DNA of 64,000 nucleotides from Escherichia phage FL38. Positions 8,377 through 59,707 of this stretch are shown here, in pieces. The translations under genes were made by a program, and so were the position numbers. The DNA lies in sequence record PP400784. One strand, 5' to 3'. Numbering within the stretch: the first letter of the stretch is position 1; each line of letters begins with the position of its first letter. The notes beneath the pieces are model-generated. The model saw only the letters and a list, made by a program, of their open reading frames with translations, was not told the origin of the DNA and searched no databases.

Positions 8377-11166
8377 ATGGCAGATTTAAGCAGAATCCAA
8401 TTTAAACGCACTAGCACTAAAGGTCGTAAACCTGATGCTAGTACGATGAATCCGGGGGAATTGGCAATCAACCTTGCGGATCAATATCTTCTTACTAAAA
8501 ATGATTCCGGTGCTATTATCAATTTAAGTTGTCCTCCTGTTTATGACCGCGATGTTACAATGGCGGGTAAGGTTAAAGGTAATAATTATATCTTAAGTAA
8601 AACCGCTAACTATCTGGAAGATCAGACCGCACGAGATCTTAATTACTTTGGTGCTTTCCGAACTAATGGACAAGATGGTCTTTTAGATCTAACTCTTAAT
8701 GTTCCTCATTCTGCTGGCATTAATCATGGTCGAGGATTTACTTTCCGTTATGCGACTGGCGGATCTCGTGTTGAAACCTATGGGTATAATGCACAGGGAC
8801 AAAAAGCATTTAGCTATAAAATGTATCACGAAGGTGATAAACCAACTCCAGGAGAATTGAACGTCTATAGCAAACAAGAAATTGACCGGATGTTTGTTAA
8901 GAACGTTAAAATGGTTGTTCCTTCTGGTGGTACAAACCGTGGTTATTTTAAAATTGCATCCGCAATGATCCCGCAGAGTGGTCGGATGGCGTTTCTGCGA
9001 ATCTATGGTGGTAATGGATATAATGTAAACTCATATGACCAAGTTGATTTTCTTGAAATTGTTATTCGTAGTGGTAATAATAACCCTAAAGGCGTTAGTA
9101 TTGCTGCATATCGTCGAAATTCTTTGAACGTCCATGAAGTATTTGCAATTAATACTTCCGGTGATAGCTATGACATTTATGTTAACTATGGTCGTTACAC
9201 TGATAACGTTATTGTAGAGTTTGGAAAAACTGTTGACGTCGCATTGACTGTTCATGATGTTCCTGAATTTTCGGCGACTAAACCAGAAACCGGAACTAAA
9301 TTTGATGCTCGTGTTATTACGATGTTCAACACCGAAAACAAAGCCGGAACATTGATGTTTGATAATAACAATCAGTTAACCTATGATATTGTTAGCCTTA
9401 GCAATGGTCCTGATGATGTTAGAAATTATCTGCGTAAATTCCGAAGTAAAGCGGGTGAAATGATTTGGCATGAAACCGTTCAGGGTGCTGTATATCGTCT
9501 TGCTACTGGAACTACTGATTCTACGGAAGTTCTTAGAGTTGATTCTAACAGTGCTCTCCCGGGTAGCTATAAAGGATATGTAATTACTGGTAAAATGGAA
9601 TTGCACGGTAGCGGTAGTGCGATGAATTTACACCGCCAGACTGGTCAAGCTGCATATATGGCGTGGTGGGATCGTCGTGATGGTAAAAACCAACGTAGTG
9701 GTTATATCGGCCATGCGGATGGTACTACTGATGGTTTTGTGTGGCGTAATGATGTTGGTGCGAACTCATTTGATTTGGAAAGTAGTGGACAAGTAAATTT
9801 GACTACAGGAAAAACAAAAATTGTATATACCAACGGACAATATTATTCCGCTAACTCTGATGCATTCCGTATGATTTACGGCAATTATGGCGCATTCTGG
9901 CGTAATGACGGCACTAAAGTTTATCTTCTTTCTACTGCCGAAAATGATCGTTTTGGTGGATGGAACGGCAACCGACCATTCATTTACGATTTGACTTCCG
10001 GTAACGTTCAATTAGGCGGTGACGGTAACGAAGCTGCATTAACGTTAGAACGTGCAAGCAAAGCCGCTCGTTTTACGGGTGATGTTTATGTAGAAAAAGG
10101 TTTCCTTCATTTCTCTAGTGGACGATTAGGATCTCGTGATTTCTTTAAAATCAACCATTGGGGTGATAGCAATAACGGTCGTGATAACATTTTGCAGTTT
10201 GAAGACAATAGCGGTGCACACTTCACAACTGAACGTAAAATGGCAACCGGTGAAATTACTGCGCGATTTAAAGGATTTGTGCGTGTAGAATCTGGCGAAA
10301 TTACATTCCATGCTAACCGTGGTTCTTCTTCGCAATTTAGTCTCAATACATGGGGTAATGAATCACGAAAACAAGTTTTTGAATGTAAGGATGCAACAAG
10401 TTATCATTGGTATACCGAACGTACTGCGGGTGGAACTGGTCCGGTTAAGTTCTCTGTTGCAGGTTCTTTCTATAGCGGAAGCGATGCTAACGTAGGCGGT
10501 AGTCTGAATTTTGGTAATGCTATTCAACGCGGCGCTAGCGTCATTACTATAGATTCTGGTTCTGCGGGTGCTGGTTCTTTTGCATCTCAACATGATGATA
10601 ACGTCAAAGCACCTATTTTCCAACGTTTAGACCGTGGTGATGCGTCTACATATGTTCCTTTGATCAAGCAACGTTATGTTCAAGGTGCAGTAACATTCTC
10701 GTTGGGTATGCTTCTTAATGAAGGTTCATGGCGAGTTCATGTTAAAGGTTCTGGTGTTGAATCTAATACTACCTTCTATAAAAACGGCGATTTCCAAGCT
10801 GGACGCAATGGTAACTTTAACGACGTTTACATTCGCTCTGATGCTCGCCTTAAAATCAACAAGGAAGAGTATAAGGAGAATGCCACTGATAAAGTTAATC
10901 GCTTGACGGTATACACCTATGACAAGGTTAAATCTTTAACCGACCGTACTGTCATTGCTCATGAAGTTGGTATTATTGCTCAGGATCTTGAAAAAGAATT
11001 ACCGGAAGCAGTAACAACTTCTAACATCGGCGATCCCGATAAGCCAGAAGAGATCTTAACAATTTCTAACTCTGCTGTCAACGCTCTTTTAATTAAGGCG
11101 TTTCAGGAAATGAGCGAAGAATTGAATGCCGTTAAAGCTGAACTAGCGGAACTTAAAAAGAATTAA
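8377..11166 (+). CDS. 37: long tail fibre distal subunit gp37 (receptor-binding fibre) with C-terminal intramolecular chaperone domain
   Basis: 929 aa; N-terminus MADLSRIQFKRTSTKGRKPDAS..GELAINL and internal AGSFASQ..DASTYVPLIKQRYVQG match T4 gp37. Confidence 0.9.
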   Translation: MADLSRIQFKRTSTKGRKPDASTMNPGELAINLADQYLLTKNDSGAIINLSCPPVYDRDVTMAGKVKGNNYILSKTANYLEDQTARDLNYFGAFRTNGQDGLLDLTLNVPHSAGINHGRGFTFRYATGGSRVETYGYNAQGQKAFSYKMYHEGDKPTPGELNVYSKQEIDRMFVKNVKMVVPSGGTNRGYFKIASAMIPQSGRMAFLRIYGGNGYNVNSYDQVDFLEIVIRSGNNNPKGVSIAAYRRNSLNVHEVFAINTSGDSYDIYVNYGRYTDNVIVEFGKTVDVALTVHDVPEFSATKPETGTKFDARVITMFNTENKAGTLMFDNNNQLTYDIVSLSNGPDDVRNYLRKFRSKAGEMIWHETVQGAVYRLATGTTDSTEVLRVDSNSALPGSYKGYVITGKMELHGSGSAMNLHRQTGQAAYMAWWDRRDGKNQRSGYIGHADGTTDGFVWRNDVGANSFDLESSGQVNLTTGKTKIVYTNGQYYSANSDAFRMIYGNYGAFWRNDGTKVYLLSTAENDRFGGWNGNRPFIYDLTSGNVQLGGDGNEAALTLERASKAARFTGDVYVEKGFLHFSSGRLGSRDFFKINHWGDSNNGRDNILQFEDNSGAHFTTERKMATGEITARFKGFVRVESGEITFHANRGSSSQFSLNTWGNESRKQVFECKDATSYHWYTERTAGGTGPVKFSVAGSFYSGSDANVGGSLNFGNAIQRGASVITIDSGSAGAGSFASQHDDNVKAPIFQRLDRGDASTYVPLIKQRYVQGAVTFSLGMLLNEGSWRVHVKGSGVESNTTFYKNGDFQAGRNGNFNDVYIRSDARLKINKEEYKENATDKVNRLTVYTYDKVKSLTDRTVIAHEVGIIAQDLEKELPEAVTTSNIGDPDKPEEILTISNSAVNALLIKAFQEMSEELNAVKAELAELKKN
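10837..11166 (+). other. C-terminal intramolecular chaperone (peptidase S74-like) domain of gp37
   Basis: SDARLKINKEEY ... GIIAQDLEKELPEAV ... coiled-coil end; matches the SDxRLK autoproteolytic chaperone signature of phage fibres/endosialidases. Confidence 0.65.
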
Positions 11167-14052: not shown

Positions 14053-14340
14053 TTATTTTCGGTTGTGGTCACGATATGTTTTAAAATATCCCTCGTACCA
14101 CGGTAAAATATCTGGATTTTTACCACTATACAGACATTTAACCATCATGTCAATAAGGCCATCTGGTGTTTGATAGTTTCCAGCTTTTATAAGCTCTTTG
14201 ATTAAAATCTCTCTGTATATGTCTTTCGGATCTTCGTAATCAACTTGTATTGTGGTTGTGGTCTCATTCAATTTGGTTTCTGGAGTATCTCGCATTGCAT
14301 CCCACCAATCTTTTGTGACCTTCATGTTATTGAATTGCAT
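14053..14340 (-). CDS. hypothetical protein (95 aa)
   Basis: ORF in dense minus-strand array. Confidence 0.5.
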   Translation of the reverse strand: MQFNNMKVTKDWWDAMRDTPETKLNETTTTIQVDYEDPKDIYREILIKELIKAGNYQTPDGLIDMMVKCLYSGKNPDILPWYEGYFKTYRDHNRK

Positions 14341-14351
14341 AATTTAACCTC

Positions 14352-15110
14352 TTACTTGCAAACGTATTGATCTACATCAATTGCGCCACCGAATGTAGGG
14401 TGACGTTTTTCAAATCGAATAGTTCCGTCGTTTGGTTCGAAAACGGAGTATTCATATAGATCTTTCTTGCCAACATTCTTATAAAACCCGCCTTTAGTCA
14501 TAACGGTTTCTTGTACGTTTGCTTTGTGTACGTTGTATTCGTCAATGTATACAAAATCAACCATCTTCCCATTTTTAATGGTTACTTTAAGATCTCCTGG
14601 CTGGTTTCCATATTTTGCATACAGTGGAGCTTCTTTAATTTTGGTGGAAATTCCATCTTTAATACTCCACTCATAACGAACGGTGCATTGATAGGTAAAA
14701 GTTTCGACCTTCGGTTCTTCCACCATTTTTTCTTCCTGTTTCGGTTGTTCTTCTTCAACCTTCGCAGAAGTCTCTGAATCGCTTTCTGACGCGGTTTCTT
14801 CTTTAGGTAATACATTCATCAAGTTTTGGATTTGAGCGTTGTATACAGCCTCCAGTGGCTGAATCTGCCCGATATTGATCATTGTATCACGAACAGTTTT
14901 ATTCCAGTTGAGTTGCTCTTGTTTAAGAGACGGATCAATCTTAACAGCCTTAACATATACTTCATGAAGTTTCGAATCCAGTGCGGAGATTGACTCATTA
15001 GCACAAATAAACTTCTCTGATTTGGTAGTGGCTTTAGCGCAATCAAAGGACGCAGCATTAGCACCGAAAGCAGTAGCGGAAAGAACGATAGCAGCGATAA
15101 TGTTTTTCAT
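14352..15110 (-). CDS. secreted protein with LprI/DUF1311-like N-terminal domain (candidate periplasmic lysozyme inhibitor)
   Basis: Signal peptide MKNIIAAIVLSATAFGANA; then SFDCAKATTKSEKFICANESISALDSKLHEVY, typical of DUF1311; Glu-rich linker; Cys-bracketed C-terminal domain. Confidence 0.55.
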   Translation of the reverse strand: MKNIIAAIVLSATAFGANAASFDCAKATTKSEKFICANESISALDSKLHEVYVKAVKIDPSLKQEQLNWNKTVRDTMINIGQIQPLEAVYNAQIQNLMNVLPKEETASESDSETSAKVEEEQPKQEEKMVEEPKVETFTYQCTVRYEWSIKDGISTKIKEAPLYAKYGNQPGDLKVTIKNGKMVDFVYIDEYNVHKANVQETVMTKGGFYKNVGKKDLYEYSVFEPNDGTIRFEKRHPTFGGAIDVDQYVCK

Positions 15111-15138: not shown

Positions 15139-15173
15139 GGGAGTATCTTACTACTCCCTTAATCCGGTGTCAA
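15139..15173 (-). promoter_or_regulatory. early promoter with inverted repeat (type II): -35 TTGACA, GGGAGTA/TACTCCC arms flanking -10 TAAGAT
   Basis: Minus strand reads TTGACA-17 nt-TAAGAT with a 7-bp palindrome around the -10; upstream of 14352..15110. Confidence 0.5.
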
Positions 15174-15642: not shown

Positions 15643-15678
15643 GGGAGTATGTTAATACTCCCATTTCTTTACGTCAAC
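15643..15678 (-). promoter_or_regulatory. early promoter with inverted repeat (type II): TTGACG-17 nt-TAACAT inside GGGAGTAT/ATACTCCC
   Basis: Seen on minus strand upstream of 15406..15618. Confidence 0.5.
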
Positions 15679-15966: not shown

Positions 15967-16191
15967 CTACCGATGACCTTTGGCGTCAACTGCTTTTTTA
16001 TTATTTTCGTGAAAATTTTTCGTCGCCTCATGTGCTTTTCGCTGGGCTTCTTGTTGTGCTTGCTGGCGTGCTGCCTCTTGTGAAGCCATAACGGAAGCAT
16101 TTGCAGCAGTTACAGCCGCTACCATCGCTGCGGTATTAGCATTTACAGTACATGCACTAGCCAGCAAAGCAATTGCAATCATTTTCTTCAT
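15967..16191 (-). CDS. small secreted/lipoprotein-like protein (74 aa)
   Basis: Signal peptide MKKMIAIALLASAC with possible lipobox, Ala/Gln-rich. Confidence 0.5.
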   Translation of the reverse strand: MKKMIAIALLASACTVNANTAAMVAAVTAANASVMASQEAARQQAQQEAQRKAHEATKNFHENNKKAVDAKGHR

Positions 16192-19058: not shown

Positions 19059-19352
19059 TTAACCGCCTTTAACCATTGATACAGGAATTGTTTTCTGATT
19101 TGTGTATAAGTGGCCTACTTCAATTTTTTCTTGAATCACCACGACGTTACAATATCCACTGTCTTTAAGTTTTCTGATAATGACTCGCTTTTGTTCGTCG
19201 GTGATAGGATTGACTGTTCTCACCAATTCACCGCAAATAATAGCACCATCTTTACAATTACCAGTAACTTTCATGCTACGACCGTGAACAACAACCACGT
19301 CACCGTAAATCACATTTTCGTCGTCGTATTTGGTAATAACCGTGACCGTCAT
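19059..19352 (-). CDS. hypothetical protein (97 aa)
   Basis: ORF downstream of terminator hairpin. Confidence 0.5.
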   Translation of the reverse strand: MTVTVITKYDDENVIYGDVVVVHGRSMKVTGNCKDGAIICGELVRTVNPITDEQKRVIIRKLKDSGYCNVVVIQEKIEVGHLYTNQKTIPVSMVKGG

Positions 19353-19364
19353 AATGTATTCCCT

Positions 19365-19389
19365 CTAAGAAAGGCCGCGCAAAGCGGCC
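19365..19389 (-). terminator. stem-loop/terminator AGGCCGC-GCAAA-GCGGCCT
   Basis: 7-bp GC stem followed on minus strand by TTTCTT. Confidence 0.45.
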
Positions 19390-19397
19390 TATGTTGA

Positions 19398-19724
19398 TTA
19401 TTGTTCTACAGTATAACCGTTGTTTTCAAGCCATGCAATAACAATCTTTTCGCCAATTTCATCGAGCATTTCATCAGCGCCATATTCTTTAATGAAAGTC
19501 GATGGATCATTATTGCTTACTACGTGCTGGATCACAACATGTTCAGGAATTGCGTCTAGTAGTTCGCTATGATCATACTCATTAACGATATCTTCAACAC
19601 TAACATTATTAACCAAATCAACATCATCCATAGTCACAGTAACGCGACCGGACGGACGCAATGAATATTGGCTACTTTCAACTTCAACATGTGCACTTTC
19701 GCAAGTAACTTTCATATCAACCAT
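19398..19724 (-). CDS. hypothetical acidic protein (108 aa)
   Basis: ORF. Confidence 0.5.
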   Translation of the reverse strand: MVDMKVTCESAHVEVESSQYSLRPSGRVTVTMDDVDLVNNVSVEDIVNEYDHSELLDAIPEHVVIQHVVSNNDPSTFIKEYGADEMLDEIGEKIVIAWLENNGYTVEQ

Positions 19725-19738
19725 AATTAATTCCTCTG

Positions 19739-20740
19739 TTAGTAATGGCTAAAACCTTCGGTTACATCTTCAACCACATAGTAACGATGACAGCGCATTT
19801 TGGCATTCGCATAATCTTTCGGGATACTTACAACGTGACGCGGATCAACTTTACATTTAATGATTCGGCCTCGTCCACCGCCATAGTGCGGAATATAGTG
19901 TTTAGCTGCAACGTGGAGGCCATTAGAGCAAGTGCGATCATCATCTGGGTCCACGTCTTTACGCTTCATTTTAACCGTGCGACCTGGGCTATTATCAAAC
20001 GTATGCGTAAAGAAATCTTTATAATCAACATCAACACGTTTCCATGCATAGAAACAACCATCTTCCACGATCTCAATGTCGTTGTGCTCTAAGAAGTCAA
20101 ATAGACGATCTACGGCCTTACGGCTAGGGTTTTTCTTGCACTTCTCAAAGAAGTTCAGATAGTGCGTATATGGCTTATTCTCTTTAATCGACTCCACAAC
20201 TCGACGAGTCAGATTATTATCAAGAACAATATTATGATAATACACAATACCATTTTCGATACGGAAAGCGCCGTGATAATATACTTCAACCGCTTTCTTA
20301 ATGTCAATCAGCGTAATAGCTTTGATGAAATCATTATGTTTAATCGCTTCCAGTGCTTCATTAAAGTTAACATGCGATGGATCAGCAGTATAAACAATGT
20401 CACCACATGTAATAGTAATAAACTTAGTTGAGGCTATTGCTACGATTTTTGAGGAAGTAGTCACGGGCTTTTTTGCGCGTTCACCGCCTTTTCCTTTACT
20501 GGTTTTACGGCGTGCTTTACGTTTTTCTAGTGCCTTGCGACCTTCCGCTACTGCGTCTTTCTGAATCAGTAATACACGGGAGGCAGTACGACGAGATACC
20601 CCAAATGCTGACGCAAGTGCTTCGCGGGTAGTAAACTTACCTTCGCCCCACTGTTTAGCCAGTTTGATTTGTTTCGCAGAATCCAGGCATTGAACGTTAC
20701 GGTCAGAGCCGGTGATTTTTGCTTTAGTCATAGTATTCAT
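19739..20740 (-). CDS. rIIB: rIIB protein
   Basis: 333 aa; SRLFDFLxxNDIEIxEDGxFYAWK, TFDNSPG.VKM, HPR.VVSIP.DY..AKMR and VVEDVTE match T4 rIIB. Confidence 0.88.
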   Translation of the reverse strand: MNTMTKAKITGSDRNVQCLDSAKQIKLAKQWGEGKFTTREALASAFGVSRRTASRVLLIQKDAVAEGRKALEKRKARRKTSKGKGGERAKKPVTTSSKIVAIASTKFITITCGDIVYTADPSHVNFNEALEAIKHNDFIKAITLIDIKKAVEVYYHGAFRIENGIVYYHNIVLDNNLTRRVVESIKENKPYTHYLNFFEKCKKNPSRKAVDRLFDFLEHNDIEIVEDGCFYAWKRVDVDYKDFFTHTFDNSPGRTVKMKRKDVDPDDDRTCSNGLHVAAKHYIPHYGGGRGRIIKCKVDPRHVVSIPKDYANAKMRCHRYYVVEDVTEGFSHY

Positions 20741-20793
20741 TCCTCTATTAGTTGGGCGACTCTCGCCGCCCGATTCACATCATTATACCAGAA

Positions 20794-20925
20794 TTATTTT
20801 GCTTCTACAACCTTGCGGATTGTGCGGTCTGATACATTATAGATTCGTGCCAGTTCGCCTTTAGTCAAGCCGCGAGCGTATTGTTTACGGATTGTTTCTT
20901 TCTGGATAGCGGTCAGTTTAGTCAT
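20794..20925 (-). CDS. small helix-turn-helix protein (43 aa) between rIIA and rIIB
   Basis: Not in ORF track; SD AGAGGTGA; HTH TKGELARIYNVSDRTIRKV resembles the N-terminal HTH of rIIB. Confidence 0.5.
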   Translation of the reverse strand: MTKLTAIQKETIRKQYARGLTKGELARIYNVSDRTIRKVVEAK

Positions 20926-20936
20926 AATATCACCTC

Positions 20937-23045
20937 TTAAAATTTAACATTCTTAACCAGTTTCATAAAGTCTTGTGCGCGTTTGTCATTATGCAGAATA
21001 CGATACCAGTTATCTACAATATCATACAGTAACGGGCTATTCTCTTTAAACTTCGCACAAACTGCTTTAATTCGTTCGTTTGCTACCGTGAATTTTTCAT
21101 CACAAATCTTTTTAGTTTCTTCGTCCATAATCCAACGAGTACGAAGGAGTAACTTGGAAACCTCTTTATTATAATGACGACCGTACAGTCTGTCAATAAA
21201 TTCTGGAACACAGCGTTCTAGTTCATCGTCATGAAACAACATAGTGATCACACCCAGATATTCGCCATACCCCAGATGATTGGTCTTAACCTTCTTAGCC
21301 AGACCAGCCAGCTTACCGCGAACAAATTCTAGCGCACATTCCAATTGTTCGTCAACGAGATATTTTTGTGTCTCGTTTCGAGTAATAATATACTTTGTTA
21401 CCCCGAAGTAGTCAAGCGCCGTGTGTAATGTATTTTCACTATGGATCGATTTACGACTACGGCTTTCGAATGAATCACCTACGCGGAACATGTGCAAGCC
21501 TGATAACTCGCGAATCTCTGCCGCTTTCATGTGATGGCTGGTTTTATTCCAACTGTCACCAATCTTTTCCATGATATACACGTTAGGCAGCTTAGGAGTC
21601 GCTTCACGTTGTGTACGCTCGGTCTTCTCCGGTTTAACTGCTTTAGCACGCAGATCATCGGCCTCAGAAACTTTAATCACGGTCATTTCAGAATCATCAT
21701 AATACTGTTTGATGTACTCGAAAGTTTCCATATGTTTTTCGTTGCGCTGACGGAACACCAATACCTTTTTATTGATTCCGTATTCCTGGACCATGCCGTT
21801 AAGAGTCAGTGCACGCAGTTTCGGTTTATCGGTATCATCAATAAGACACGTAATATCTTCTTTATGCATCCATACAAAATGCGTAATGTTGTATTGACTG
21901 CTAACGAAAGCAGGGCGCAATTTACTGATTGTGTTACGAGTACGATATAGAGTATACACCTGACCTTCTACGTCATTTGGCGAATCTTTACCCGCATTCA
22001 CAAACTTATTATAGATTGCTACCGGATCATCCCACTGCCCGATCTTACCCATCTTGCTAATAATATTGCGTTGAGTCGATGAATACTCGCTCATAAATTG
22101 CGCAAGTTTACGCTCTGTTTTAATGTTGGCGATCTTCTCTTTAACCTTTTCCAACATCATTTCATTGATTTCTGCAATACGTTTTTCGATGTTCGCTTTA
22201 GTCTCAATTGACAAGTGAACTTCTTCACGCGATGGCATCAGGTCCAGATCACCCAACTCAAAATTAATGTAAATGGTCTGGTGCTGGCGGTTTACAGCTT
22301 CTAACCATGTTCCGCGAACATATTCATACGGGATCGGATACTGGATCTTACCCATGATTGCATATACTACATAGGAATCGTTATCACGCCCATTACAAAC
22401 ATAATAATTATCAAAGCTAGGGAAATAATTAATTTCGATTGCATTGATATTAGGTTTGTGTTCCCCAAAATGACGCAGTACAAATTGCGCTTCTCGATGC
22501 CATGTCTGAATGTCTTTTTCTTTCACTGGAATAGTGATTTTCAGACCATTGTCTTCATAGGTCGGTTCGTCGAAAATCTGCACCATTTTCGGCATAGAGT
22601 TTTGCACAAATGCCGTAAAGCCATAAGCGCGACCATTGTAATAGTTTACGATTGTAAAGGTGTCAGTGTAGCTATAAGCAGATTTCGCACCTAAACCAAA
22701 AGACCCGATATAGTCATTAGTCTGGTCTTTTGTTGATTCAAAGTAAACCGTAAACAGTTGTTCTAATTCTTTCTTAGACGGAATACCAGTACCATAATCA
22801 CGCACAGAAAAATACGGTTCGATTGCAGTCGGTAAATGAATATCAAACGGACGATCTAAGGTTCCGGCTTCTTTGTGAGTGTCGGTAGCATTGCACGAAT
22901 ACTCACGGACGCAAGCACGCTCACAATATTGATAAGTGTTCTTAGAAAGCACCATAAAAGCCTTGCTACTTGCTTTCAGTGAAAAATCAACCGCACCGCT
23001 CAGGTCACTGCCAAATACTTCTTCATTATCAATATGCATTTTCAT
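20937..23045 (-). CDS. rIIA: rIIA protein (GHKL-type ATPase fold)
   Basis: 702 aa; adjacent to rIIB as in T4; DYGTGIP/GSFGLGAKSAY ATPase-like motifs. Confidence 0.85.
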   Translation of the reverse strand: MKMHIDNEEVFGSDLSGAVDFSLKASSKAFMVLSKNTYQYCERACVREYSCNATDTHKEAGTLDRPFDIHLPTAIEPYFSVRDYGTGIPSKKELEQLFTVYFESTKDQTNDYIGSFGLGAKSAYSYTDTFTIVNYYNGRAYGFTAFVQNSMPKMVQIFDEPTYEDNGLKITIPVKEKDIQTWHREAQFVLRHFGEHKPNINAIEINYFPSFDNYYVCNGRDNDSYVVYAIMGKIQYPIPYEYVRGTWLEAVNRQHQTIYINFELGDLDLMPSREEVHLSIETKANIEKRIAEINEMMLEKVKEKIANIKTERKLAQFMSEYSSTQRNIISKMGKIGQWDDPVAIYNKFVNAGKDSPNDVEGQVYTLYRTRNTISKLRPAFVSSQYNITHFVWMHKEDITCLIDDTDKPKLRALTLNGMVQEYGINKKVLVFRQRNEKHMETFEYIKQYYDDSEMTVIKVSEADDLRAKAVKPEKTERTQREATPKLPNVYIMEKIGDSWNKTSHHMKAAEIRELSGLHMFRVGDSFESRSRKSIHSENTLHTALDYFGVTKYIITRNETQKYLVDEQLECALEFVRGKLAGLAKKVKTNHLGYGEYLGVITMLFHDDELERCVPEFIDRLYGRHYNKEVSKLLLRTRWIMDEETKKICDEKFTVANERIKAVCAKFKENSPLLYDIVDNWYRILHNDKRAQDFMKLVKNVKF

Positions 23046-32175: not shown

Positions 32176-32379
32176 TTATAGCTCAAATTTCATGAAAGTT
32201 CCTACACTTTCATTTTCATTCTCTCCGTTCTCATCTAAGCCAAATTTGTAGACACTACCATCTGGCGATGTGTAAGAGAATACACGAAAACGGCCTACCG
32301 GATCAAGTTCTGTAAATTCATATTCTTTTCCGGCTTCAAAAAGTGCATATGTGCTTTTAAGACATTTCATCGTAATCAT
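32176..32379 (-). CDS. hypothetical protein (67 aa)
   Basis: ATG overlaps the stop of the small gene above (ATGA). Confidence 0.5.
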   Translation of the reverse strand: MITMKCLKSTYALFEAGKEYEFTELDPVGRFRVFSYTSPDGSVYKFGLDENGENENESVGTFMKFEL

Positions 32380-32519
32380 TTAAGCGCCACCGACAACAGA
32401 ATGAGAACTACACCAACATACATTGTGATCTCGGATAACTTTTCTGTTTTTGTTTTGTGTCCAGATAATCCGAAAACAACAACACCGATAATAGCGGACA
32501 GCAAGCCAACGATAAACAT
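32376..32519 (-). CDS. putative small membrane protein (47 aa, 2 TM)
   Basis: Not in ORF track; SD GGAGAAAG; stop overlaps the next start (ATGA). Confidence 0.45.
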   Translation of the reverse strand: MFIVGLLSAIIGVVVFGLSGHKTKTEKLSEITMYVGVVLILLSVALK

Positions 32520-32526
32520 GATGATA

Positions 32527-32703
32527 CTAAGCACCGTCTTTCTCCTTTTTGCGTTTTTCTTTACCCGCTACACTAGGTCCACGATTGGTAATAGATCCGC
32601 TCGTTTCACCTGCTGCGATCTTCTCAGGATTGCCGCCAGCATCGCCAGCGGTCATATCTTCTTTGAGTTTATTTTCTTCAACAAACTGTTTAAAGCCAAT
32701 CAT
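32527..32703 (-). CDS. putative small protein (58 aa, Gly/Lys-rich)
   Basis: Not in ORF track; ATG overlaps the upstream stop (ATGA). Confidence 0.4.
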   Translation of the reverse strand: MIGFKQFVEENKLKEDMTAGDAGGNPEKIAAGETSGSITNRGPSVAGKEKRKKEKDGA

Positions 32704-33793: not shown

Positions 33794-35206
33794 TTAGAAA
33801 GTCATGTTATTTGCTAGCTCGTCGAGTTTTTCTCGTTTCTCGGCTTGCTGTGCGCTTTGCGGTTTAACTTGTGCATTCTCCTGATCTGCGATCTGGTTTG
33901 GTACTTCATACCAACGCTGATTGCCTTTTTTCACACCAACGTTAAACCGTGAATAATAGTTCTTGTCACCGTAACGAGACTTGATCTGCTTCATGAGTTG
34001 GACGCCCATTTTAGCCAGGTCTTCGGTTTCGATAACACCCAACATAAAGTCGGCAGTAGCCGGAAGACCTGCTGATTCAGCGGTATCACTCATGTTAAGG
34101 TCGGAAGCATCCCAACCCGCGCGGGTAGTCTGTGCCGCAGTCCAACCAACAACATCCCACTTAACAAAAAATCCTCGCAGTTCTTCCGCAATCGCCTTAA
34201 CTAGTGTGTAACTATTTTCAGAGTATACACGCAAGCGAGACGATGCGCAAATCCCCAGATAGTCAACAATCACAACATCAGGTTTAAACTGTTTCTTGAG
34301 TCGCAATTCATTCATTAACGCCTCAAAGTGATTGGAGTTCGCGCCACCAGTCGGATACTGCTTGATCATCAATTTTCCAACCGGACGATCTCCGATCTTC
34401 TTATTCTTAACACGCTTCATGCGTGCGGAATATTCCGCAAAAGAAACATTACCATTATCCAATTCATCTAATGTAATGTCAAGCAAGTTTGCGTCGATAC
34501 GTTTTGCTACTACATGCTCCGCCATCTCCATTGAGATATACAATACATCATAACCACATTCCATATAATCCGCAGCAAGAGAACACAATCCAAGCGATTT
34601 ACCAACATTTACACCAGCAAGCAACACATTTAGCGTTTTTCTTTCCGCACCTCCTTTCGTGATTTTATTCAACATCGGCAGCTTAAACGGGATCTTATTC
34701 GCCTTAGTCTGATATAGCAAGAATCGTTTTTCAAAGTCATTAAACCAGTCATGACCTACATCAGAATCAAACGTAATGGATAGTGCTTCCTGCATGATCT
34801 CAGGAATAGCACCCTCACTCGGCAATTTCTTATTCTGTTTCTCTTTTGGTAGTTGTGCGTTCGCCTGAATCTCTAGCGCCCGTGACATTGCATTGTACAT
34901 AGCACGGTCACGAATAAATTTTTCGGTTTCCTTCATTAACCAATCAAGGTCTTCCGGTGTATTCTCCAGCGAATCGAGAAGAGTTTTAGCCCCTTCATAT
35001 GTTGTCTGATTGCCTCTCTCCTTGTCTAAAGCAATCTGTAATGCAGTTGGCGTAGGAATATTGGAATATTCGTCTACGTGCTTTTTAATCAGCTTATAAA
35101 TCAGTTTTTCTTCGTCTTCGGTGAAGTAGTCCGCTTTAAGGTGAGGCCATACATTCGTAAAGAATGCGCCATTGTAAATCAACTGTGAAAAGATAGTTTT
35201 AATCAT
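33794..35206 (-). CDS. 41: replicative DNA helicase (DnaB-like)
   Basis: 470 aa; Walker A GVNVGKS; T4 gp41 is 475 aa. Confidence 0.9.
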   Translation of the reverse strand: MIKTIFSQLIYNGAFFTNVWPHLKADYFTEDEEKLIYKLIKKHVDEYSNIPTPTALQIALDKERGNQTTYEGAKTLLDSLENTPEDLDWLMKETEKFIRDRAMYNAMSRALEIQANAQLPKEKQNKKLPSEGAIPEIMQEALSITFDSDVGHDWFNDFEKRFLLYQTKANKIPFKLPMLNKITKGGAERKTLNVLLAGVNVGKSLGLCSLAADYMECGYDVLYISMEMAEHVVAKRIDANLLDITLDELDNGNVSFAEYSARMKRVKNKKIGDRPVGKLMIKQYPTGGANSNHFEALMNELRLKKQFKPDVVIVDYLGICASSRLRVYSENSYTLVKAIAEELRGFFVKWDVVGWTAAQTTRAGWDASDLNMSDTAESAGLPATADFMLGVIETEDLAKMGVQLMKQIKSRYGDKNYYSRFNVGVKKGNQRWYEVPNQIADQENAQVKPQSAQQAEKREKLDELANNMTF

Positions 35207-41618: not shown

Positions 41619-41639
41619 GGGGAGTATTTTATACTCCCC
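41619..41639 (-). other. stem-loop between genes 45 and 44
   Basis: GGGGAGTAT-AAA-ATACTCCCC followed by GTTTT on minus strand; possible partial terminator or RNA structure. Confidence 0.4.
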
Positions 41640-57528: not shown

Positions 57529-57563
57529 GGGAGTATTATAGCATACTCCCTTCGCATGTCAAG
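57529..57563 (-). promoter_or_regulatory. early promoter with inverted repeat (type II): TTGACA-16 nt-TATAAT within GGGAGTAT/ATACTCCC
   Basis: The -10 TATAAT sits in the loop of an 8-bp inverted repeat. Confidence 0.55.
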
Positions 57564-58762: not shown

Positions 58763-58797
58763 GGGAGTATCTTACTACTCCCGTTTCATCATGTCAA
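58763..58797 (-). promoter_or_regulatory. early promoter with inverted repeat (type II): TTGACA-17 nt-TAAGAT within GGGAGTA/TACTCCC
   Basis: Palindrome identical to the one at 15139. Confidence 0.55.
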
Positions 58798-59378: not shown

Positions 59379-59707
59379 TTCACTAATTGAACAGCACGGA
59401 ACAGAATGCGCTCACACGGAAGCAGCATAAATTCCCAACGCGGATCAAAGTCTTTAGCGGTGTATGTTTTCCCATCAACCGAGATTTCACTTACATAACC
59501 AACAGGTGACACTTTAAGAACAGTAAACCCATTCTTGATGACTTCGTAGGTATATTTCACCCCTTCGTATTCATCATCTAAGAAGTCTTTATGTGCTTGC
59601 TCAGATTTAAAAACATAGGCAACACCGGATTTAAACATCTTACGCATTGTTGATTCTCCTTCTTGATTAGATGGGAGTATTTTACTACTCCCATTTCTTA
59701 TTGTCAA
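59375..59707 (-). CDS. repeat-domain family protein (single domain, no tail)
   Basis: MFKSGVAYVF...GFTVLKV...ERILFRAV. Confidence 0.55.
   Translation of the reverse strand: MTIRNGSSKILPSNQEGESTMRKMFKSGVAYVFKSEQAHKDFLDDEYEGVKYTYEVIKNGFTVLKVSPVGYVSEISVDGKTYTAKDFDPRWEFMLLPCERILFRAVQLVK

Follow-up and report, generated by a model that had tools for sequence, protein, structure and literature searches.

The window analysed here is a stretch of 64,000 nucleotides from the genome of Escherichia phage FL38, a Krischvirus, i.e., an RB49-like T-even coliphage. Its early region, as the first-pass annotation had proposed, harbours a gene for a 252-aa protein, which is flanked by the holin gene t and the topoisomerase gene 52, lies ~3.2 kb from the end of the tail-fibre gene 37 and is preceded by a promoter-like site. 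The strand, on which that annotation was silent, is the minus strand. The protein shows 98% identity to proteins of the RB49 group and matches phrog_14799 over its full length (E=2.5e-154), and the 1.9 kb around the gene are 97-98% identical at the nucleotide level to W115, FL20 and RB49. The RB49 ortholog is annotated as a 'hypothetical protein', and its UniProt entry is named 'Lysozyme inhibitor LprI-like N-terminal domain-containing protein'; a hint of a DUF1311 domain (E=0.2) was tabulated for the RB49 ORF as early as 2006 (PMC1524935). The assignment of a DUF1311 domain in the first-pass annotation was thus correct but already public. Our literature search found no experimental report on the protein or its orthologs, and PADLOC-DB v2 yielded no significant match (best 13-14 bits, E 0.004-0.011). 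The gene and the modules of its product are as follows:

14352 to 15110, minus strand: coding sequence of the 252-aa protein, ortholog of RB49p262 / UniProt Q7Y3G7 (list of open reading frames, ATG start)
15145 to 15173, minus strand: σ70-type early promoter-like site, TTGACA-17-TAAGAT (consensus scan, 10/12)
15054 to 15110, minus strand: predicted Sec (SPase I) signal peptide, aa 1-19, with predicted cleavage between ANA and AS (sequence rule)
14802 to 15053, minus strand: constant DUF1311/PF07007 helical module, aa 20-103, with the Cys24-Cys36 pair (Pfam; AlphaFold2 helices 30-100)
14709 to 14801, minus strand: acidic low-complexity, predicted disordered linker, Glu/Lys/Ser-rich, ~aa 104-134 (pLDDT <50 for 104-131)
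14355 to 14708, minus strand: variable C-terminal module, aa 135-252 (class I, allele A), predicted 8-stranded up-and-down β-barrel

The promoter-like site is situated 35 nt upstream of the ATG, and its -10 element falls within the loop of a palindrome, GGGAGTA..TACTCCC, with 6 recurrences in the window against 0 expected. At its N-terminus, the protein bears what appears to be a canonical signal peptide, MKNIIAAIVLSATAFGANA followed by AS, with a basic n-region (K2), a 12-residue hydrophobic core and an A-N-A SPase I site, and there is no lipobox (L-x-x-C) at its end (...FGANA/ASFDC). It is one of only two signal-peptide-like ORFs that a crude scan recovered on the window's coding strand. The motif SFDC...C...LD..L..VY follows in the N-terminal part, where residues 21-52 read SFDCAKATTKSEKFICANESISALDSKLHEVY. 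The Pfam LprI/DUF1311 profile PF07007 matches residues 24-76 (profile positions 1-71 of 106) with E=1.4e-4 and 22.6 bits, a marginal pass over the gathering cut-off of 22 bits; given scores of 24-26 bits for the orthologs and of 23-28 bits for distant phage homologs, the assignment is sound. Hence, both the clear signal peptide and the DUF1311 core read from the letters in the first-pass annotation hold up.

Bacterial members of PF07007 have two cysteine pairs, C30/C42 and C86/C91 (alignment A7 numbering), of which the phage protein keeps the first (C24, C36) and lacks the second. The second pair is also missing in homologs from Klebsiella and Aeromonas phages and in some Geobacter proteins. 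From such sequence comparisons, the phage versions look like a subtype rather than an exclusion from PF07007. The DUF1311 module is near-invariant in 21 homologs, and their alignment extends this near-invariance from residue 1 to ~120-134, with dN/dS values of 0-0.16 that place this constant chassis under strong purifying selection. A full-length AlphaFold2 model built on the same 21-sequence alignment has N-terminal helices at 30-100 (pLDDT 70-79), a β domain (pLDDT 85-92) and, between them, a linker at 104-131 with pLDDT <50, in agreement with the Glu/Lys-rich linker noted earlier, whose length differs between alleles through indels.

The C-terminal domain had been described as bracketed by cysteines, and C142 and C251 are indeed, along with G153, the only invariant positions of this domain in the homolog alignment. 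In the models, C142 falls in strand 1 and C251 in strand 8. When the C-terminal 115 residues were modelled alone, they yielded eight β-strands (pLDDT 87.9, pTM 0.79), and the BFVD model of the RB49 protein, which was obtained independently, superposes with a TM of 0.91. The predicted structure thus displays the eight-stranded antiparallel β-barrel with a β1-β8 disulfide by which the MliC/PliC/ACP fold class is defined. The barrel may accordingly be grouped by fold with the lysozyme inhibitors MliC, PliC, ACP and PhiA, with the proviso that the resemblance is not specific: Cap15, OmpW, designed barrels and lipocalin-like proteins score equally well or better than MliC, PliC and ACP; a Foldseek search against the PDB retrieved only weak matches to generic barrels; and the BFVD search recovered only the RB49 ortholog and unnamed small barrels.

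Membership in the MliC family proper is rejected by three separate lines. None of 14 C-terminal modules matches PF09864 at E<=10; hhalign of the module against E. coli MliC gives a probability of 1.2%; and the motifs SxSGAxY (in the loop β4-β5) and YxxxTKG (in β6) that characterise MliC/PliC (PMC5507604) are absent, the module alignment having no invariant residues other than C, G and C. Both motifs are visible in alignments of MliC structures from the PDB. Of the MliC/PliC-like fold named as a check in the first-pass annotation, then, a disulfide-closed 8-stranded barrel is predicted by AlphaFold2, and the family relationship does not hold. Nor did the module reveal other relatives: phmmer against 1.84e9 representatives found none outside its own gene family (three extra matches being low-complexity noise), sequence searches of the PDB and Pfam with the 14 modules found nothing outside the family, and module HMMs found nothing among 63 bacterial DUF1311 proteins. 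Within class I, variability peaks in the loops β4-β5 and β6-β7, at one end of the predicted barrel. The former corresponds to the loop that MliC inserts into lysozyme, a comparison that, with n=7 sequences, is a weak hint.

Only 20 clusters in a set of 5.8 billion proteins are related to the 252-aa protein; a profile of the N-terminal module gave 6 matches in the 5.8e9-protein set, a number limited by the word index of that search. The most striking feature of the gene, which escaped the first-pass annotation along with the sharing with prophages described below, is a cassette-like polymorphism of the C-terminal module (hereinafter, the head), for which two boundaries were mapped:

14703 to 14709, minus strand: left edge of the exchangeable cassette (where blastn alignments with Phi1, JSE and E. 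coli prophages break off)
14278 to 14344, minus strand: right-hand conserved flank, the 5' end of the downstream gene (RB49p261 homolog, 14053 to 14340; blastn 80-81% identity)

Compared with Phi1, JSE and the E. coli copies, the nucleotide identity is 95-97% from the start codon or further upstream, is lost at gene nt ~371-408, at a point that differs by copy in the blastn alignments, cannot be detected over the rest of the reading frame and returns in the downstream gene. The heads so exchanged, on a chassis with 95-98% nucleotide identity, constitute discrete and very divergent types (16-40% identity), which fall into at least two classes that appear unrelated in sequence: hhalign of class I against class II gives a probability of 3.7%, with no relationship except in the first strand. 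The window's own type occurs in 44 of 56 matched isolate records (96.6-100% identity), and the remaining 12 carry a second type that is only 37% identical to it; JSE has a class II head, and further types come from metagenomes and prophages. Beyond the coliphages, homologs in T4-like phages of Klebsiella (Marfavirus) and Aeromonas keep the signal peptide, the ASFDC..C DUF1311 module and the linker, and have quite different C-terminal domains, each with two cysteines. A search of the window revealed neither silent cassettes nor internal repeats of the gene, and, the alleles being discrete, this argues for recombinational module replacement and makes hypermutation by a DGR unlikely. The dominance of one allele fits cassette replacement and offers no direct sign of an ongoing arms race.

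The same gene is present in 26 of 5426 complete E. coli genomes, where it is annotated as a 'lysozyme inhibitor LprI family protein'. There, it occupies the terminal position in a 35-kb prophage that interrupts hicB, with a serine recombinase at the opposite end and capsid, portal, terminase and tail genes in between; the IMG/VR contigs match this placement, the gene lying 0.8-1.4 kb from the end of contigs of ~35 kb. With an upstream region of its own and a terminator-like hairpin 3' of the gene, the prophage copy shows, as judged from this layout, a typical 'moron' arrangement, i.e., an autonomous accessory gene. In two prophage variants, a 25-codon remnant of the phage downstream gene directly follows the stop codon (MKFNSMKITKDWWDAMKANHQNDIN and a stop in the prophages versus MQFNNMKVTKDWWDAMRDTPE... 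in the phage), which argues that the prophage segment was derived from a T-even genome; the remnant also offers homology on the right-hand side through which further cassettes could be exchanged. At least three different heads, drawn from both classes, occur among the prophages, and the prophage copies are nested within the phage diversity, with dS values of 0.06-0.24 between phage and prophage and between phages alike. Exchange is thus recent or ongoing, as the phage-prophage distances are no larger than those among the phages. Apart from the 252-aa gene, the window's first 25 kb match E. coli chromosomes only in a part of the tail-fibre gene gp37, a segment shared with the same hicB prophage. 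The genes adjoining the 252-aa gene in both phage and prophage are small hypothetical genes lacking Pfam matches, and none of them is effector-like.

Placing the protein among the characterised members of its superfamily calls for some care with names. The label 'lysozyme inhibitor' of PF07007 derives from LprI, in which the MliC half suffices for inhibition (PMC7933661), and for the 252-aa protein it is unproven. As in M. tuberculosis LprI (Rv1541c), an N-terminal DUF1311 module of an exported protein is followed by what is predicted to be a small 8-stranded barrel of the MliC class (PMC7933661, PMC5507604). In contrast to LprI, the phage protein is not a lipoprotein, its barrel has neither the MliC profile match nor the MliC motifs, and it combines a long acidic linker and an exchangeable C-terminal module with the loss of the second DUF1311 cysteine pair. 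With MliC, PliC, Neisseria ACP and Brucella PhiA, all periplasmic inhibitors of lysozymes or peptidoglycan hydrolases, it similarly has the predicted fold class in common but not the MliC motifs.

A second line of comparison is offered by stand-alone DUF1311 proteins with signal peptides, several of which are validated or predicted immunity proteins against T6SS hydrolases that act in the periplasm (PMC12981562, PMC8867033, PMC9796082, PMC12135965). Thus, the EHEC DUF1311 protein Etsi4 rescues E. coli from the T6SS effector Etse4 (PMC12981562), Salmonella Dublin has the single-domain immunity-type protein SED_RS06230 of ~146 aa (PMC8867033), Pantoea has DUF1311 orphan immunity genes (PMC9796082), and DUF1311 immunity-type proteins occur in WHIX effector loci (PMC12135965). 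ScwA, a soluble periplasmic DUF1311 protein of Salmonella, confers no lysozyme resistance; it controls the levels of the lytic transglycosylase MltD, has functional disulfides and provokes lysis when over-produced (PMC7933661).

In a scan of species-representative genomes, we recovered 337 bacterial loci with a signal peptide and the ASFDCxKA..IC module. In 63 complete bacterial ORFs, the module is N-terminal and usually followed by 100-400 varied residues that are mostly unannotated; the annotated C-terminal partners are ankyrin repeats (2), SH3 (1), MliC (1) and PF14373, the Imm_superinfect family of T4 Imm (2, at 57 bits against a cut-off of 27.9). Members of PF14373 in bacteria are themselves mostly uncharacterised. 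This survey indicates that an N-terminal DUF1311 module joined by a linker to a variable periplasmic or membrane module is a general bacterial design. Judging by these fusions, the partners MliC and Imm match both functions proposed in the first-pass annotation, namely lysozyme inhibition and superinfection exclusion. The former is favoured by the LprI-like architecture and the bacterial MliC fusion; against it stand the failure of ScwA to confer lysozyme resistance and a barrel that is not MliC/PliC by sequence or motif.

As for the latter, bacteria fuse the same DUF1311 module to PF14373, a link to T4 Imm, although the 252-aa protein itself has no PF14373 match in Pfam. To our knowledge, T4 Imm and Spackle are the only T-even factors whose role in superinfection exclusion is understood, and no homologs of either are detectable in the window or the whole RB49 genome, including the gene 41-61 interval; tblastn of T4 Sp against both gave only a spurious match inside gene 41. 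Like Spackle (gp61.3) and Imm, the gene at hand is an early T-even gene with a signal peptide and a predicted disulfide-containing periplasmic product. An argument from its position in the Spackle slot was withdrawn: the homolog in Klebsiella phage PWKp18 lies between the primase gene 61 and the dCTPase gene 56, whereas T4 sp lies between 41 and 61, so that its position is merely near that of T4 sp.

Taking these observations together, we propose that the protein acts as an early factor of envelope defence in the periplasm, providing superinfection exclusion or protection against lysis from without, with the head setting the specificity; we advance this tentatively, as the best supported of the readings considered here, at somewhat less than even odds. 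The constant chassis would comprise the signal peptide, the DUF1311 helical module with its one disulfide and the flexible acidic linker, and the exchangeable head would, in this phage, be the small 8-stranded β-barrel closed by the β1-β8 disulfide. The protein's task in an infected or lysogenic cell would be to bind foreign proteins that assault the wall, or pass through it, from the outside, and to neutralise them; muralytic or entry components of superinfecting phages are the foremost candidate targets. The protein would thereby fill the niche of T4 Spackle and Imm, neither of which is detectable in Krischviruses. Heads would be traded by homologous recombination, with the constant 5' half of the gene and the start of the downstream gene serving as arms. 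That the head is replaced wholesale and that the gene is kept at a prophage end make it more likely that the protein is aimed at invaders, which are diverse, than at the host periplasm, which is conserved in E. coli. The export signals, domain identity, cassette polymorphism, phage-prophage sharing and purifying selection on which this proposal builds are observed or computed, as is the prediction of the fold itself; periplasmic binding and inhibition, the identity of the target and an exclusion phenotype are what we infer from them.

Orphan immunity genes are often found on mobile elements, and the position at the prophage end would suit one. Under such an interpretation, which we regard as unlikely, the protein shields the infected cell or lysogen from the periplasm-acting peptidoglycan hydrolases of neighbouring cells, such as T6SS muramidases or transglycosylases and lysozyme-like bacteriocins, with each head matching one of a set of polymorphic effectors. 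The diversity of the heads does resemble that of effectors and their immunity proteins, and the Sec-exported DUF1311 proteins from E. coli, Salmonella, Pantoea and the WHIX loci discussed above neutralise, or are predicted to neutralise, wall hydrolases of just this kind. However, those proteins (e.g., Etsi4, SED_RS06230 and the Pantoea versions) are single-domain, at ~146 aa, and effector-adjacent, whereas the phage protein has an additional variable module and no effector gene adjoins it in phage or prophage; furthermore, a lytic phage with a short latent period would gain little from such protection.

A strict functional analogue of Spackle, which would inhibit the gp5 lysozyme of incoming tails of the same type through either the MliC-like barrel or the constant DUF1311 module, appears quite unlikely. 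It draws on the early expression expected of the gene, the predicted periplasmic location of an MliC-class barrel and a DUF1311 module, the presence of a confirmed PF00959 lysozyme domain in Krischvirus gp5 and the want of a detectable Spackle in the genome. Yet the gp5 lysozyme region is 97.7-100% identical in all isolates, whatever their head type. With a hypervariable head facing a near-constant gp5, the two do not behave as a co-evolving pair, and a simple Spackle-like partnership between the barrel and the gp5 of the same phage is accordingly unlikely; we reject co-evolution of the barrel with its own gp5 on this absence of co-variation. A constant DUF1311 module facing an invariant lysozyme domain would be compatible with DUF1311 as the binder, but this leaves the swapping of heads unexplained. 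Spackle, moreover, consists of one helical bundle of 75 aa and shows high conservation across 178 homologs (PMC7677548); the 252-aa protein has no relation to it in sequence or fold, and its putative specificity module is instead a strain-swapped β-barrel that does not track gp5. If tail lysozymes are targeted at all, they are those of other phages, or it is the constant module that binds. The Spackle-like role put forward in the first-pass annotation hence stands in part: the lack of detectable Spackle and Imm in RB49 and the window, the Imm-domain fusions and the moron position speak for it, and the missing homology to Spackle and the missing co-variation with gp5 speak against it.

The DUF1311 module might, alternatively, bind and stabilise host lytic transglycosylases such as MltD in the manner of ScwA, retuning peptidoglycan turnover to prepare or delay lysis or to harden the sacculus. 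ScwA offers a direct precedent in its control of MltD and in the lysis that follows its over-production (PMC7933661), both proteins being predicted or known soluble periplasmic DUF1311 proteins and ScwA disulfide-dependent, and a DUF1311 gene of the YecT family in P. aeruginosa scored in a β-lactam resistome screen. We nevertheless deem this distinctly improbable. The periplasmic enzymes of E. coli are conserved and do not explain the wholesale replacement of heads; ScwA has a different architecture, with DUF1311 at the C-terminus, and is all-helical, chromosomal and non-polymorphic; and the phage gene is early, not late, in a genus that already has the holin T, RI, spanins and an endolysin. 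Nor does the holin co-vary with module type: T is 97-100% identical irrespective of the head. An allele-specific antiholin is rejected for want of this co-variation, and an antiholin role in general is unlikely given a near-constant holin T and the presence of RB49's own rI.

Masking of an outer-membrane receptor from the periplasmic side in the style of T5 Llp or Cor, with the head blocking adsorption or injection, is very improbable, despite a predicted periplasmic protein with a variable head and tail-fibre genes nearby: unlike Llp and Cor, the protein has no lipobox, outer-membrane proteins vary little within E. coli on their periplasmic side, and the head alleles do not track those of the gp37 tip, given that MIZ3 and MIZ6 have tips 96% identical to the window's and heads only 37% identical, and Cognac and KFS-EC have tips 43-53% identical and heads 98-99% identical, so that masking of the phage's own receptor is rejected.

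Returning to the envelope-defence reading, its most ambitious form would be a programmable periplasmic exclusion system, in which one chassis receives interchangeable disulfide-locked heads, each directed at different phage components or bacterial toxins; the heads would define 'exclusion groups', and the cassettes would be traded between virulent T-even phages and temperate prophages through the conserved flanks. We offer this as a speculative and rather unlikely extension. Judging by the literature that we searched, three findings appear to be new: that phages have a DUF1311 chassis bearing a predicted barrel of the MliC class, that the gene shows a cassette polymorphism whose boundaries can be mapped precisely, and that virulent T-even phages and the hicB prophage have shared it very recently. 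The last of these is a clean case of very recent gene flow (95-98% nucleotide identity) linking a temperate prophage with a myovirus that is strictly lytic.

RB49-type phages are widely used in phage-therapy cocktails. As far as sequence and predicted structure can indicate, the gene is a well-defined candidate, and one that can be tested at little cost, for the exclusion function still to be accounted for in these phages. If the proposal is true, it would explain how RB49-type phages, and the lysogens that borrow the gene, exclude competitors, and it would bear on the design of such cocktails, since mutual interference is conceivable, though not certain, between phages that differ in their heads. 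More generally, it would provide a testable function for the large and uncharacterised array of bacterial periplasmic proteins in which a DUF1311 module is combined with a variable C-terminus.

The E. coli prophage inserted in hicB, which bears a homolog of the DUF1311-protein gene, also possesses a tail-fibre gene with segments 76-91% identical to that of the window. The regions compared were:

Window 8593-11112, gp37 distal tail fibre
L026 (the E. coli sequence with the hicB prophage) 19240-22842, prophage tail-fibre region

Since the tail-fibre segments and the DUF1311-protein gene occur in the same prophage, two cell-envelope-related modules are therefore common to the lytic phage and the prophage.

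Putative cell-wall enzymes are annotated in both RB49 and this prophage:

L028 (the RB49 genome) 34720-35109, RB49p102, annotated as a putative endolysin
L026 7258-7611, D-Ala-D-Ala carboxypeptidase-family metallohydrolase encoded by the hicB prophage

A 2006 survey matched the RB49 endolysin to a D-Ala-D-Ala carboxypeptidase (E=0.0014; PMC1524935); thus, the gp5 domain is the sole lysozyme-type muramidase identified among the RB49 gene products examined.

Three further small genes of the window were considered alongside the DUF1311-protein gene:

14053..14340, minus strand, RB49p261 homolog, small and cytoplasmic-looking, directly downstream of the DUF1311-protein gene
15967..16191, minus strand, 74-aa ORF, three genes upstream of it
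32376..32534, minus strand, 52-aa ORF in the gene 41-61 interval

The RB49p261 homolog, which has no Pfam match, differs far more from phage to phage than its neighbours do, with nucleotide identities of 70% to Phi1 and 88% to JSE against 92-95% for the flanking genes, and is represented in the prophages only by a 25-codon stub; perhaps it is just carried along with the cassette, i.e., the exchangeable C-terminal module of the DUF1311 protein. The 74-aa ORF, likewise lacking a Pfam match, starts with a signal peptide of lipoprotein type (MKKMIAIALLASAC...) and continues into a tail rich in Ala and Gln; in a crude scan of the window's coding strand its product was the only exported-looking one besides the DUF1311 protein. 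We consider it another candidate for an envelope or exclusion factor. The 52-aa ORF has two predicted transmembrane segments and lies in an interval whose T4 counterpart holds sp, 61.4, and dmd; it showed no significant family match and no resemblance to Imm.

The palindrome GGGAGTA-N5-8-TACTCCC occurs six times in the window, versus none expected from 100 shuffles:

15139-15158
15643-15662
41620-41638
57529-57550
58763-58782
59673-59692

All six copies fall within short gaps upstream of minus-strand genes, and in the two examined, the loop contains the -10 hexamer belonging to a promoter-like site with TTGACA-17. The palindrome resembles an operator-like inverted repeat that surrounds the -10 in early promoters, and is possibly a shut-off site.

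Beyond phages, DUF1311 is fused to the Imm_superinfect domain (PF14373) in proteins from two Betaproteobacteria MAGs:

L034 3914-4678, DUF1311-PF14373 fusion
L035 3908-4678, DUF1311-PF14373 fusion

In both, a signal peptide is followed by DUF1311, an Ala/Pro-rich linker, and a C-terminal Imm_superinfect membrane domain (57 bits). These fusions link DUF1311 to the family of the T4 superinfection-immunity protein.
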